This document shows positions 7,193-14,361 of a stretch of DNA of 26,467 nt, piece by piece. This DNA comes from a virus (lineage: Duplodnaviria > Heunggongvirae > Uroviricota > Caudoviricetes): the IMG/VR virus record IMGVR_UViG_2654588181_000005, positions 1 to 26,467 of that record; one strand, 5' to 3'. Every line of letters starts with the position of its first letter. Positions within the stretch are counted from its first letter, which is position 1. The translations under genes were made by a program, and so were the position numbers. The notes beneath the pieces are model-generated. The model made no database searches and was not told where the DNA came from. It was given only the letters and a program-made list of their open reading frames with translations.

Positions 7193-7237
7193 ACTATAGG
7201 TAATGCCTAATTGATTGTCAATAGGCTATGCCTAATG
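7193..7237 (-). promoter_or_regulatory. Leftward early promoter (PL-like) with repressor-operator motifs
   Basis: On the minus strand: -35 TTGACA (7221..7216), 17-bp spacer, -10 TATAGT (7198..7193); ATGCCTAAT motif at 7203-7211 and 7228-7236; contains the 22-mer CATTAGGCATAGCCTATTGACA. Confidence 0.6.
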
Positions 7238-7330
7238 TTTTGGGTGTAACCTAATAGGTGATGGCGACAGGAGAAAGTGATGGGGGGTTAAATAACGGAA
7301 TCCAGGAGTTTTCCGTCAGACCATATAAGT

Positions 7331-7807
7331 TTAAGTTCCAGTTTTTGTGATGTTCTGGCTTTTCCGTTCAGATTCTAGAGCTTTCAGATACTTACCCACT
7401 TTCATTTCCATCGCTGCTATGTAGGCGCGAACATCGTGGTCAACCCAATCTGGTTCTGTAGCATTTCCAGATAACAGGAAAGCTACAATCGCTCTTATTT
7501 CATCAGAGGCTGCTTGATAAAGGTTGTTTATATCTAAAAGTTCACTTTTTGTATCTGAATTGGTGGGGGTTGGTATGGGGTATTCGTTAAGCCCCCAATG
7601 CTCTGGACCAACAACATCAGAAAAGAAACGCCATAATTCTGGAAGTTTATCTTTACTTATGGAGCCTTTCTTAATCCAGTCATAAATTGATGGTGGTTGG
7701 ATTTTGAAGTGGCGTGCGACCTCCGCCTTTGATTTGACGGATCCCGATGCGATTTTTTTGTTAATGGCCTGCTCTATCGCTCGGCCTAAGTCTTTACCAC
7801 TAAGCAT
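7331..7807 (-). CDS. racR: RacR prophage repressor
   Basis: 158 aa starting MLSGKDLGRAIEQAINKKIASGSVKSKAEVARHFKIQPPSIYDWIKKG (HTH); divergent from ydaS. Confidence 0.9.
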   Translation of the reverse strand: MLSGKDLGRAIEQAINKKIASGSVKSKAEVARHFKIQPPSIYDWIKKGSISKDKLPELWRFFSDVVGPEHWGLNEYPIPTPTNSDTKSELLDINNLYQAASDEIRAIVAFLLSGNATEPDWVDHDVRAYIAAMEMKVGKYLKALESERKSQNITKTGT

Positions 7808-7834
7808 TGCTTAATATTCTCCTATGCTCATTGC

Positions 7835-7906
7835 ATTAGGCAATCCCTACCTTTATCGCATTAGGCATAGCCTATTGACATTTATGTTAGGCGTCGCCTA
7901 ATATTT
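7835..7906 (+). promoter_or_regulatory. Rightward early promoter (PR-like) with operators in the racR-ydaS intergenic region
   Basis: -35 TTGACA 7875-7880, 18-bp spacer, -10 TAATAT 7899-7904; ATTAGGCA(A/T) copies at 7835-7843 and 7860-7868; perfect palindrome TTAGGCGTCGCCTAA at 7887-7901. Confidence 0.6.
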
Positions 7907-7930
7907 CTGTGTGTTTTTGGAGTTCATTCG

Positions 7931-8227
7931 ATGAAAAAAGAGAACTATTCATTCAAGCAAGCTTGTGCTGTTGTCGGTGGGCAATCAGCAATGGCTAGGC
8001 TTTTAGGTGTATCACCTCCAAGCGTAAATCAATGGATCAAAGGGGTACGTCAATTGCCTGCCGAGAGATGTCCAGCAATTGAACGAGCAACAAGAGGTGA
8101 GGTTCTGTGCGAAGAGCTTCGTCCTGATATTGACTGGTCATATTTACGACGTTCGGCATGTTGTTCGCAGAATATGTCAGTGAAGCAACTAAATGACAGT
8201 AACAAATCCTCATTTGATCATACCTGA
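7931..8227 (+). CDS. ydaS: YdaS, Cro-like HTH protein
   Basis: 98 aa starting MKKENYSFKQACAVVGGQSAMARLLGVSPPSVNQWIKGVRQLPAERC. Confidence 0.9.
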   Translation: MKKENYSFKQACAVVGGQSAMARLLGVSPPSVNQWIKGVRQLPAERCPAIERATRGEVLCEELRPDIDWSYLRRSACCSQNMSVKQLNDSNKSSFDHT

Positions 8228-8249
8228 AACATCAAGAGGCAAATGATTC

Positions 8250-8672
8250 ATGAAAATCAAGCATGAGCACATCGAATCAGTGTTGTTTGCCCTGGCAGCC
8301 GAAAAAGGGCAGGCATGGGTAGCCAATGCAATTACTGAAGAATATCTGCGCCAGGGGGGCGGCGAATTGCCCCTGGTTCCAGGCAAGGACTGGAACAATC
8401 AGCAGAATATCTATCACCGTTGGTTGAAAGGTGAAACGAAAACGCAAAGAGAAAAAATTCAGAAGCTGATCCCAGCAATTCTGGCAATCCTTCCGCGCGA
8501 GTTGCGTCACCGACTCTGCATCTTCGATACCCTGGAACGCCGTGCATTACTGGCGGCGCAAGAAGCGTTAAGTACGGCAATTGATGCGCATGATGATGCA
8601 GTCCAGGCCGTTTACCGGAAAGCGCATTTCAGCGGCGGTGGTTCGTCCGGCGATTCTGTTGTTGTTCATTAA
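8250..8672 (+). CDS. ydaT: YdaT, toxic Rac protein
   Basis: 140 aa starting MKIKHEHIESVLFALAAEKGQAWVANAITEEYLRQGGG; immediately downstream of ydaS. Confidence 0.85.
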   Translation: MKIKHEHIESVLFALAAEKGQAWVANAITEEYLRQGGGELPLVPGKDWNNQQNIYHRWLKGETKTQREKIQKLIPAILAILPRELRHRLCIFDTLERRALLAAQEALSTAIDAHDDAVQAVYRKAHFSGGGSSGDSVVVH

Positions 8673-8684
8673 GGTGATGTGGTG

Positions 8685-8981
8685 ATGGAAAAATATGAAC
8701 TGAAAAAATACCGACTTAAAACACTGGAAGGCGAAACATTGCTTCAGCGTATAGCCCGAAATGTTGCCTGGTATGCCATACGACTCTCTCTGCATCGCCA
8801 TCTTGTTAACGGGTATCCCTCGTCAACGCTGTTGTTCATCAATATCAAAGATAAAGAAAAAGCCGCAGAACACATTCGGTGGATGGAACTGGCGCAGGGA
8901 CAAGCTCTTGATATTGAGTATGGCGATGAGATCGACTACAGCAAAGCTCAACCGCTGCGCCACGTAATTTTTAGGGGGTGA
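8685..8981 (+). CDS. Hypothetical protein (98 aa), third gene of the ydaS-ydaT operon
   Basis: ATG at 8685, 13 nt after the ydaT stop; product MEKYELKKYRLKTLEGETLLQRIARNVAWYAIRL...; no family recognised. Confidence 0.5.
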   Translation: MEKYELKKYRLKTLEGETLLQRIARNVAWYAIRLSLHRHLVNGYPSSTLLFINIKDKEKAAEHIRWMELAQGQALDIEYGDEIDYSKAQPLRHVIFRG

Positions 8982-9233
8982 TTATGACATCTTTTCTTTT
9001 AGCTTTTGTAGGGCAACGATCAGTTCATCAATTTGGGTTGCATCCATTATCAACTCTAGTTTGTGATAAGCCCCGTAATTTAGCTCCTGTGTGTGGAATT
9101 CCTGGGCAAGTATTTTTACTCCTCCGCGATTGAGCATTCCTGAGGTGCTAAAAATTTTTGACTCGGTTCCAGTAATACTGTCCACCCAAAATTTTTGGGG
9201 GAATGGAGCAGACTTATCAAATGTAAAAGACAT
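8982..9233 (-). CDS. Hypothetical protein (83 aa), convergent with the upstream gene
   Basis: Strong AGGAGG ribosome-binding site about 6 nt before the ATG at 9233; product MSFTFDKSAPFPQKFWVDSITGTESKIF...; its stop codon directly abuts the stop of the 8685-8981 gene. Confidence 0.5.
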   Translation of the reverse strand: MSFTFDKSAPFPQKFWVDSITGTESKIFSTSGMLNRGGVKILAQEFHTQELNYGAYHKLELIMDATQIDELIVALQKLKEKMS

Positions 9234-9312
9234 GTCGAACCTCCTTTGGTTCTGTTGATTGGGGAATCACAGATTATATCCGGAGGAAGGTTCGACACCA
9301 GATGAGGCAATT

Positions 9313-10437
9313 ATGGTTAAGGCTAAAAATATGCCAAATCCCATGCCAAAAACTAAGGCAAACAATGAGCCTTATCGCAAGGTAAAAATAACGATATGGG
9401 ATGATCCCAAATTTAGGGCGTTATCTCCTCTGCCTCCAAGTGGACAGAGTTTGTTTATTTATCTGCTGACCAGTCCATTTACCGGGATTATTCCTGGGTT
9501 GTTTAAAGCCGGGCGGGCAGCAATGGCTGAAGAGTTGGGGTGGGATATCGAAGCCTTTGACTTAGCCTTAGGCGAAGCCATGAATCTTGGCATGGTGAAA
9601 GCAGATATCAAAGCCAGAGTTTTTTGGCTCCCGAATGCTGCGAAACACAATCCGCCAAACTCGATAAATGTCATTAAATCCTGGGCAAAGGCATTCGCTT
9701 TAATTCCTGATTGTCCTCTCAAATGGGAGGCCAGGGAATCGCTGAGAGCCGCGTCCTATGGGGTTTCTGAGGCTTTGGGGATGGCATTCGATAAGGCAAT
9801 CCCTTTGCCTGAGGATAAGCCTAAGGATAAGGCTAACGCTTTGTCATGCGGTATCCAGATAACAGATAACAGATATATAAACCCCACACATAACGCGCGC
9901 GTGCGCGAGAGTGCTCCGGCCAGTGAGGCAAATGGCGTGCCGTTGCAGACAGCGGAACCTGATTACCTGGAAGGCCTGAACGAACCCATCGGGAAATTTC
10001 CGATGACTGATGGCTGGCATCCGTCGCTGGATTTTCGACGGCGGGCAGCTCTGTGGGGAGTGGCTCTGCCGGAGCCGGAATTTACACCAGCTGAACTTGC
10101 CGCCTTCCGGGACTACTGGGCAGCGGAGGGGAAAGTTTTCACGCAGGTTCAGTGGGAGCAGAAATTCGCCCGTCACGTAAATCACGTCAGGGCGCAGGTT
10201 AAACCAGTCAGCAAGGGGGTGAACCATGCAGCAGCACCAGGTGGCACCGCATCACGGGCAGTTCAGGAAATTCGGGCAGCACGTGAGCAGTGGGAACGTG
10301 AAAACGGATTTATCAGCGACGGAAACGGCCTGGAAGTTGTGGGAACTCATGGGGGAGGTTTATTCGAACCGCTGGACCCAGAAGAACGGGGCCGCACCTT
10401 CGAAGCTCTGGATTGCACAGATTGGTGCGATGACTGA
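9313..10437 (+). CDS. Putative replication initiation/primosomal protein (occupies the YdaU/O position)
   Basis: 374 aa from [38 protein letters not shown] 5 nt upstream of the ATG; first gene after the immunity region. The track's start at 9259 is a TTG without a ribosome-binding site. Confidence 0.5.
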
Positions 10438-13683: not shown

Positions 13684-14205
13684 TGAAAATTCCTCAAGTT
13701 GGAGAGTTCTGGAACATTAAGGCGAGGTGGCCGTAATGCACCATCTGTAATCTTTTGATACTGACGTAATCGGGCCTGATGTGCAACGCCTTGCAAGTAT
13801 GTAACTCATTGAAAACGATCATTTTTATCTATTGACATCAAATGGCAAACTGTCATTGTGCGGCTATGGCAAGTGGCAAATGCTTATAAATCATATGGAT
13901 ATAAATAGTACAGAAAGAGTTGTTTTCTCTAGGATATGAGTATACGCCCAATGCTGATTGGTTGAATTTTGTTCTTGTTTTAAAGGGTAAGAGTTTAAAG
14001 TGTTGGCAGTGATGTATTGGATAGTTAGAATTGCTGTGGGTGCTTGAGGCTATCTGCCTCGGGCATGATCACCAAAGGTAGATAGAGAAAAGCCCCAGTT
14101 AACATTACGCGTCCTGCAAGACGTTTAACATTAATCTGAGGCCATATCTATGCGACACATAGAGATTAGCCTCTTACGGACCGAAAGGTCAAGGAGAAGC
14201 AGGCT

Positions 14206-14361
14206 ATGAAGCAGCAAAAGGCGATGTTAATCGCCCTGATCGTCATCTGTTTAACCGTCATAGTGACGGCACTGGTAACGAGGAAAGACCTCTGTGAGGT
14301 ACGAATCCGAACCGGGCAGACGGAGGTCGCTGTCTTCACAGCTTACGAACCTGAGGAGTAA
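14206..14361 (+). CDS. hokD: Hok/Gef-family type I toxin (HokD/RelF-like)
   Basis: 51-aa product MKQQKAMLIALIVICLTVIVTALVTRKDLCEVRIRTGQTEVAVFTAYEPEE; a short upstream ORF (14150-14209) ends overlapping the hok ATG, mok-like. Confidence 0.85.
   Translation: MKQQKAMLIALIVICLTVIVTALVTRKDLCEVRIRTGQTEVAVFTAYEPEE

Follow-up and report, generated by a model that had tools for sequence, protein, structure and literature searches.

A conserved predicted RNA hairpin antisense to exchangeable cargo genes at the replication border of Rac-type prophages

Why do two small prophage genes converge until their stop codons touch, and why does an inverted repeat cover the start of one of them just before the replication genes? 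The question is raised by a 26,467-nt stretch of viral DNA (IMG/VR record IMGVR_UViG_2654588181_000005, positions 1 to 26,467; hereafter the window), which is an Escherichia coli prophage of the Rac-type lambdoid kind. The two genes, ORF98 on the plus strand and ORF83 on the minus strand, form a cassette in an accessory-gene slot between ydaT and the replication genes. Our comparisons indicate that the repeat forms the basal stem of a conserved 67-nt RNA element, predicted on the plus strand only and thus antisense to ORF83. This hairpin probably shuts the accessory-gene slot down when the prophage turns lytic. The predicted element is made of the following parts.

9234-9300, plus strand: structured RNA element, a rod-like hairpin of 25 bp with an ACCA tail (minimum free energy -31.7 kcal/mol, z = -4.8)
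9234-9242 with 9288-9296, plus strand: stem P1
9243-9249 with 9280-9286, plus strand: stem P2, followed by the bulged A9287
9251-9255 and 9257-9260 with 9265-9273, plus strand: inner hairpin P3, with the loop GGGG at 9261-9264
9274-9279, plus strand: internal loop
9297-9300, plus strand: single-stranded ACCA tail, directly after the stem

The 5' strands of P1 and P2 (9234-9249) are complementary to the Shine-Dalgarno sequence and spacer of ORF83, and their 3' strands (9280-9296) contain the GGAGG that a preliminary description of this locus had ascribed to ribosome binding at the replication gene. A covariance model of the element scores 87.7 bits here and finds a single copy in the window.

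The case for selection on this fold comes from its relatives. When 49 distinct copies are aligned with the covariance model, 91.4% of the cells pair, against at most 55.5% with slid partners, and a MAFFT alignment of 16 diverse copies gives 90% against at most 59%. Changes on both sides affect 11 pairs and 65 cells of the 49 copies, values matched by none of 500 shuffles, a control that overstates significance because the sequences are related. The second pair of P1 occurs as U:A, U·G and C:G, P2 shows CG, UG and UA, and six of the nine pairs of the inner hairpin, which reads TTGATT-GGGG-AATCA in the window, have changed on both sides (for example, UA in 19, GC in 15 and AU in 9 copies). RNAalifold gave a partial structure on the raw MAFFT alignment; we used a hand-set structure and the covariance-model alignment, and the arguments on which we rely are the slid-partner control and the asymmetry of G·U and A·C between the strands. 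In relatives with about 20% difference in coding DNA, hardly any position changes between the start codon of ORF83 and about 9303.

The plus strand folds better than the minus strand in all 48 distinct variants (mean -30.8 versus -21.9 kcal/mol) and has 3.3 G·U pairs per variant, against 0.4 on the minus strand. Among the non-Watson-Crick cells of the 49 copies, 158 are G·U and 19 are A·C. With this imbalance, the object of selection can be neither a minus-strand RNA nor a pure DNA palindrome, and the comparisons thus show a predicted RNA structure that is selected on the plus strand, antisense to ORF83. Two other explanations have to be confronted with these numbers. The hairpin might form in the leftward mRNA and sequester the Shine-Dalgarno sequence of ORF83, as a thermosensor or a factor-dependent leader. 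Its left arm holds AGGAGG and the spacer, the minus strand still folds (-23.5 kcal/mol, z = -3.5), and a sigma-70-like minus-strand site (TTGGCA-16-CATAAT, 9337-9310) could start a transcript spanning both arms. Yet the minus strand folds worse in every one of the 48 variants, with A·C mismatches where the plus strand has G·U, the leftward TAnnnT hexamer lies inside the hairpin, so that its transcripts would lack the upstream arm, and the 9337-9310 site belongs to the replaceable replication module and is not common to relatives. We therefore consider such a leader very unlikely.

Alternatively, a dimeric or tetrameric regulator such as YdaT might bind the palindrome as a DNA operator, controlling the leftward promoter, the replication genes, or both, and the covariation would then reflect the symmetry of half-sites. 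The excess of G·T over A·C, 158 to 19 with the inner hairpin included, is not what a DNA palindrome would give. The inner hairpin (9255-9269), just downstream of the leftward -10 hexamer, does contain the half-sites of the published YdaT box, TTGATT-N6-AATCAA, and a YdaT tetramer is able to hold two duplexes (PMC9986795). The spacing is nevertheless N4 instead of N6 and the second half-site reads AATCA(C), so that 9255-9269 is not a YdaT box; the copy of the CP-933P type, from the prophage where that box was defined, reads TCGATT-GGG-AACCA, and the same type of element accompanies different YdaT and immunity types. An operator seems to us quite unlikely, if somewhat less so than the mRNA leader.

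The inverted repeat had been noted before as an imperfect one, which it is: GTCGAACCTCC at 9234-9244 pairs with GAAGGTTCGAC at 9286-9296 at 10 of 11 positions, with coordinates shifted by one from those first given, and GGAGG at 9282-9286 offers an alternative register. A bare repeat of this kind in one sequence is unremarkable and not beyond chance; for 11-nt repeats with at most one mismatch and a spacer of 20-80 nt, the window has 42 pairs and its mononucleotide shuffles have 5-22. Its significance comes from the whole hairpin (z = -4.8), its conservation and the covariation in relatives. The preliminary description had made conservation in related prophages a test of its proposal, and the repeat is in fact conserved more strongly than coding DNA. 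The repeat had also been said to hold the Shine-Dalgarno sequences of both ORF83 and the replication gene. For the latter this has to be abandoned: GGAGG 9282-9286 sits 26 nt from the ATG at 9313. The sites are better placed as follows.

9240-9245, minus strand: Shine-Dalgarno sequence of ORF83, AGGAGG, 6 nt from the ATG; invariant in relatives, part of the site being fixed by the search pattern
9304-9307, plus strand: likely Shine-Dalgarno sequence of the replication gene, GAGG, 5 nt before the ATG at 9313

Relatives keep GGAGG or GGGGG although their next rightward start codon is about 30-60 nt away. We rejected a shared divergent ribosome-binding region, as the element accompanies the leftward gene, even in phages that carry the cassette between cro and cII, and we rejected an origin or ssi signal of the replication genes, as it tracks the cargo and not the replication module. 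An intrinsic terminator was set aside because what follows the long hairpin is ACCAGAUGAGG, which is not a U tract. A small 5-bp hairpin at 9237-9252 fares no better as a terminator, being broken in five variants with C in column 23, and these same variants covary as C:G within the long structure. A tRNA gene was also discarded, ARAGORN having found none.

Searched with Rfam at gathering thresholds, the whole window yields only RalA and sok, and the interval 9180-9360, at E values up to 10, yields chance-level matches to snoR16 and Pseudomon-1 only, without C4. RalA, the antitoxin small RNA (sRNA) of the RalR/RalA type I system, lies at 1557-1735, and sok, of a hok/sok-type locus, at 14038-14208. 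The searchable literature, queried with the sequence, with the gene name ECs1072 and through the prophage sRNA catalogues (EcOnc, svsR, Pas), holds no description of the element.

The element is nonetheless widespread. With a 95-nt query it is found in 633 of 5,426 complete E. coli genomes, about one in nine, including O157:H7 strains of the Sakai type, and a pattern scan of IMG/VR gave at least 119 contigs and, among the matches listed, at least 48 distinct variants. The covariance model also confirms copies in Citrobacter, Izhakiella and Xenorhabdus; a loose pattern run over genome contigs returned mostly chance matches in GC-rich genomes, of which the model upheld only those in Izhakiella australiensis and Xenorhabdus budapestensis. 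The same stretch is common to prophages with entirely different genes in the slot. It is missing from the Rac prophage and the chromosomal bssS locus of K-12, and at a locus without a leftward gene (L011) the copy is degenerate (48.6 bits) and has lost its ACCA. Only two deposited phage genomes carry it, PP818812.1 ('Actinobacillus phage vB_Apl-pPE4') and OM284015.1 ('Elizabethkingia phage EKP1'). Both have Rac-like early regions typical of Enterobacteriaceae, the former being 99-100% identical to the window over 9226-9400, and their host labels look doubtful.

On the minus strand, the element heads genes. A leftward start codon, read as CAT on the plus strand, precedes it in 139 of 144 instances, and the open reading frames (ORFs) that begin there fall into 12 families separated by BLAST. 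Five of these have several members (ORF83, ECs1072 or NF033230, another of 151-155 aa, one of 92-99 aa, and the BssS family, PF13991), and the rest are singletons. ECs1072, the cargo gene behind the element in O157 prophages of the Sakai type, is growth-phase regulated in a microarray study of an O157 Sakai lysogen (PMC2241611). Cargo of the BssS family, annotated as 'biofilm regulator', was seen at four loci (L045, L075, L099 and L103). Leftward ORFs of 151 and 92 aa starting from the CAT are unannotated at others (L003, 3093-3726; L004; and OM284015.1, L151, 2225-2503), where PGAP or the depositors call overlapping plus-strand ORFs; the lengths of these leftward ORFs are kept across many variants. 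The internal loop of the hairpin coincides with a candidate promoter element.

9271-9278, minus strand: predicted leftward -10 hexamer for ORF83, TAATCT (9276 to 9271), overlapped by a perfect TATAAT (9278 to 9273)

The pattern TAnnnT is present in 48 of the 49 copies, always within the internal loop and 36-39 nt from the ATG, with T1, A2 and T6 invariant and the inner bases variable; an extended TGn precedes it in 13. The comparisons thus show a widespread element that heads many families of predicted cargo genes and in which the putative -10 hexamer, the ribosome-binding site and an N-CCA tail are conserved.

This tail, with the base pair that closes the stem, resembles the end of a tRNA acceptor. 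Substrates of E. coli RNase P are determined by U-1, the pair G+1:C72 and the interaction of RCCA with P15 of the enzyme, and the natural substrates on record include the phage C4 antisense RNA of P1 and P7, whose 5' end is made by RNase P, and phage M3 RNA, next to known hairpin model substrates (PMC11143913). The element has their sequence counterparts: U9233, the pair G9234:C9296, a 9-bp P1 on a 7-bp P2, and the single-stranded A9297-C-C-A9300. Across the 49 copies, some of whose columns here were fixed by the search pattern, position -1 is T in all, +1 is G in 47 with its paired C in all, and the tail is A in 47 (U in two), C in 48, C in 46 and A in all, followed by a free base (A in 24, G in 14, T in 6). 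Cleavage by RNase P between U9233 and G9234 is thus what we infer from the sequence.

Double-stranded sites of another kind offer a competing explanation. The lambda N leader has a site of the RNase III type, and others lie between the early genes of T7. The hairpin might be such a processing or stabilising site, or a 5' stem that protects the mRNA downstream, with no discrete antisense RNA and an incidental ACCA. A 25-bp rod, nearly continuous but for a bulge and an internal loop, suits RNase III, as do strong selection on the plus strand and a position between transcription units of one operon. Such a site would leave unexplained why N-CCA is conserved next to a free base, and why the element constantly abuts a leftward start codon and decays where there is none; a distance to the next rightward start codon that ranges from 12 to about 60 nt also speaks against it. 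We think it unlikely, if the least so of the alternatives considered here.

What the element would regulate depends on its surroundings, which are those of a lambdoid early region. Strains C7, C3 and others are 100% identical to the window over the cassette region.

7331-7807, minus strand: repressor gene
7875-7904: early promoter, TTGACA-18-TAATAT, in agreement with published K-12 Rac and CP-933P
7931-8227, plus strand: YdaS/Cro gene
8243-8260: YdaT box over the ydaT start codon, TGATTCATGAAAATCAA, with TTGATT-N6-AATCAA on the other strand, in agreement with published K-12 Rac and CP-933P
8250-8672, plus strand: ydaT, functional analogue of lambda cII (Pfam YdaT_toxin, 3.9e-11; PHROG 163, 'CII-like')
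8685-8981, plus strand: ORF98, 98 aa, in the rightward early operon
8982-9233, minus strand: ORF83, 83 aa, leftward cargo gene
9313-10437, plus strand: replication initiation gene with a DnaT-like domain (PHROG 1408 over residues 20-355; Pfam DnaT, 1.8e-17)

The last gene before the cassette, ydaT, is the left border of the insertion slot; the replication gene, from its ATG at 9313, is the right border, and a lambda-P-like loader comes next. In relatives of the ydaU type, modules are exchanged exactly at this ATG. In identical E. coli genomes, PGAP begins the replication gene at 9523 (L001, 3924), whereas the coverage of PHROG 1408, the ydaU-type relatives and one phage annotation favour 9313, which makes the protein 70 aa longer. 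A second TTGATT-N6-AATCA occurs at 1504-1520, some 40 nt before the gene of the RalA sRNA, and a loosened YdaT-box pattern has three matches in the window, against 0.26 expected by chance.

The convergent pair had been described from the ORFs of the window, and most of that description holds. ORF83 (8982-9233) starts at the ATG 9233-9231 with a strong AGGAGG 6 nt before it, and its TAA (8984-8982) abuts the TGA of ORF98 (8979-8981) at 8981|8982. Neither protein belongs to a family found by sequence searches of Pfam, PHROGs, NCBIfam, PADLOC and the PDB, PADLOC giving only a chance-level match of 14.6 bits to a model of 583 positions, and both are annotated as hypothetical in identical E. coli genomes. 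We suspected from the shared architecture that ORF83 belongs to the BssS family (PF13991), and rejected this: there was no Pfam match, also among eight family members at E values up to 10, and hhalign against 15 BssS-family cargo proteins gave a probability of only 0.8%. Overlapping 3' ends with antisense interplay, proposed at the outset, are a reasonable expectation from the architecture, because the early operon must cross ORF83 to reach the replication genes and no terminator-like site was found between or inside the two genes, that is, on either strand of 8673-9233, or on the minus strand of 7200-9233.

Relatives of the pair are few. Among 5.8 billion proteins, ORF83 has 11 clusters and ORF98 six; a search of species-representative genomes for related loci found no relative. 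A profile search of the full library with ORF83 gave nine proteins at E values up to 0.001, of which five are new, distant and small relatives (P0018-P0022, 35-57% identity), one is a known truncated relative (P0010) and three are chance matches in large repetitive proteins. Of the five distant relatives, three converge on a partner gene whose stop abuts theirs, a fourth and its partner overlap by 21 nt, and the most distant has no partner. Abutting stops are kept at L005, L008, L027, L029 and L031, so that the arrangement is present in E. coli, Citrobacter and three more distant lineages, and the geometry is retained in relatives down to 54% identity. The partner proteins and ORF98 have in common ET[LMV][LIV]QRIARN[VI]AW[YH]A[IL]R and a C-terminal HVIFRG, and across some 140 element-headed loci partners of this family occur only beside ORF83-family genes, nearly always without a gap. 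The ratio dN/dS, computed against the Citrobacter and metagenomic copies, is 0.09-0.14 for ORF98 and 0.20-0.34 for ORF83, pointing to purifying selection on both. These comparisons show that the two predicted ORFs are real genes that form a conserved module. For the same pairs of loci, dS is two- to four-fold lower in ORF83 (0.27-0.41) than in ORF98 (0.52-1.26), which suggests either that the DNA or RNA of ORF83 is under extra constraint or that this half of the cassette was exchanged more recently.

The strict co-occurrence of the two genes, together with the opposite logic of their transcription, points to an antagonism between lysogenic and lytic functions. They might instead be a toxin-antitoxin or abortive-infection pair, being small, strictly co-occurring prophage genes whose opposite regulation in lysogenic and lytic growth would fit self-immunity; ORF98 has a pI of 9.2 and its family is consistently basic, and ORF83 is mildly acidic in a family that ranges from neutral to acidic. 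Type II systems are typically co-directional operons, whereas these genes converge. The lack of matches in Pfam, NCBIfam and the PDB, with only the chance-level one in PADLOC, and the missing partner of the most distant ORF83 relative also make such a pair improbable, about as much as the mRNA leader discussed above.

Comparison of related prophages shows the region 8673-9312 to behave as a mobile accessory cassette. Of the 5,426 complete E. coli genomes, 19 carry it in full. K-12 Rac has nothing in the slot, with 12 nt from the end of ydaT to the start codon of ydaU, and other prophages fill the slot with alternative cassettes. The cassette is found before replication modules of the DnaT type, of the ydaU/ydaV type and of others, and two phages of the O/P type have it between cro and cII. 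The identity that relatives share ends precisely at the borders of the element, 9226 and 9316. This last observation, with a conservation higher than that of the flanking coding DNA, is what one would expect if the element were a linker at module borders, functionless as RNA and homogenised by lambdoid recombination, next to which ORF98 and ORF83 would be adjacent morons. But diverged copies hold their pairing by changes on both sides and by G·U, a copy decays when its cargo is absent, and the strict co-occurrence of ORF98 and ORF83 with abutting stops extends over 54-100% identity. This makes a mere linker highly improbable, slightly more so than any other alternative raised here.

Among known systems, the element is closest in kind to the antisense RNAs of the C4 and sar type and to hairpin substrates of RNase P, and it is in no curated family. 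Like C4 of P1 and P7 (Rfam C4), it would be a small structured phage RNA within a longer operon transcript, without a promoter of its own, with a terminal stem followed by CCA as in a tRNA acceptor and with complementarity to a ribosome-binding region. It differs in that it does not match the Rfam model and that the target of C4 lies downstream in the same transcript (icd/ant), whereas here it would be a gene on the opposite strand. The properties of C4 named here were reportedly described by Citron and Schuster in 1990 and by Hartmann and co-workers in 1995. The sar RNA of the P22 immI region is a cis-encoded antisense RNA over the ribosome-binding site of ant, transcribed from its own promoter in the direction opposite to the operon. 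Convergent transcription and a gene to be kept silent in one developmental state are common to both cases, but in ours the antisense strand would be the main early transcript and the silenced gene a swappable cargo, and there is no sequence similarity. Hairpin substrates of RNase P (the 4.5S RNA precursor, acceptor/T-stem model hairpins and M3 RNA) resemble the element in their first G:C pair, U-1 and single-stranded RCCA; they have a canonical stack of 12 bp, in contrast to the bulged stem of 9 + 7 bp for which we predict cleavage.

The leftward transcript has its own parallels. As with pO/oop of lambda, the predicted promoter lies just downstream of a cII-type gene at the border of the replication genes, and its transcript would converge on the early right operon. 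The oop RNA is non-coding, 77 nt long, ends at its own intrinsic terminator and overlaps the 3' end of cII, whereas here the leftward transcripts would encode proteins of 70-157 aa (ORF83 in the window), no terminator-like site is seen on the minus strand of 7200-9233, and the selected structure is on the other strand. Lambdoid morons (Juhala et al. 2000) are likewise extra genes inserted between genes that are adjacent in relatives, with their own promoter (predicted here) and presumably expressed from the prophage. Classic morons have their own terminator and lie mostly in the late region; in this cassette the stops abut and no terminator-like hairpin follows, and a conserved leader or structure is common to many unrelated cargo genes of the early operon, oriented against that operon.

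The reading that we prefer, with a confidence somewhat below even, is that the cassette carries cargo expressed in the lysogen, and that the early lytic transcript yields an antisense or processing RNA that silences or insulates this cargo. In the lysogen, where the rightward early promoter is repressed, ORF83 would be expressed from its own promoter in the manner of a moron, the minus strand of the element providing the -10 hexamer, a leader of about 30 nt and the AGGAGG, and its unterminated transcript would continue antisense into ORF98. Upon induction or infection, the early transcript would cross ORF83 in antisense and the hairpin would fold, to be excised most likely by RNase P at U9233|G9234. 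Once released, the hairpin could target the ORF83 leader as a stable antisense RNA, its 5' half being antisense to the ribosome-binding site, and it may also punctuate the transcript, freeing the downstream replication mRNA from the sense/antisense duplex. ORF98, made in the lytic mode only, would act on or with ORF83, most simply as its modulator. We infer these transcription patterns, the antisense silencing and any ORF98-ORF83 interaction from gene order and conservation. A wider claim, which we hold only tentatively and with distinctly less confidence, is that the element defines a new family of phage regulatory RNA: an acceptor-like hairpin excised by RNase P from the early transcript and serving as a portable 'lysogeny-only' switch for at least five multi-member cargo families of Enterobacterales prophages (12 separated by BLAST), with ORF83 and ORF98 as an antagonist pair in this instance.

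Several points weigh against this reading. The promoter, the processing and the antisense action are all deduced from sequence alone, and a model-fitted alignment leans toward the structure it was built on. A pattern fixing TCGAACCTCC and GGTTCGRCAC gathered 43 of the 49 copies, so that the invariance of those bases is not independent. U(-1) also specifies the A of the ATG of ORF83, and the -35 region, which the conserved CACCA overlaps (TGGTG on the minus strand), can account for part of the conservation of this sequence; that -35 is itself weak, matching 3 of 6 positions at best in most copies. One locus (L028) has a pair of copies (1253-1323 and 1625-1699): a degenerate one without CCA (32 bits) next to the start of the cargo gene, and an intact one (82 bits) that no start codon adjoins, located between the cargo stop and ydaT. 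The model does not explain this arrangement. As for a physical link between ORF98 and ORF83, AF2 run with shallow family alignments gave unusable models of both proteins (pLDDT 43 for ORF98 and 50 for ORF83), and these were not used.

These results matter because the small genes headed by the element differ from case to case, have no known function and lie in the best-studied regulatory region of lambdoid prophages, where annotation often misses or mis-frames them. Its covariance model provides a handle on a hidden class of prophage cargo that may be expressed in lysogens, including members of the BssS and ECs1072 families. The locus also offers a testable case in which one strand of a DNA segment would carry a promoter and a ribosome-binding site and the opposite strand a selected RNA structure, and in which bacteriophages may have evolved a new natural substrate of RNase P other than tRNA and a new type of antisense control.

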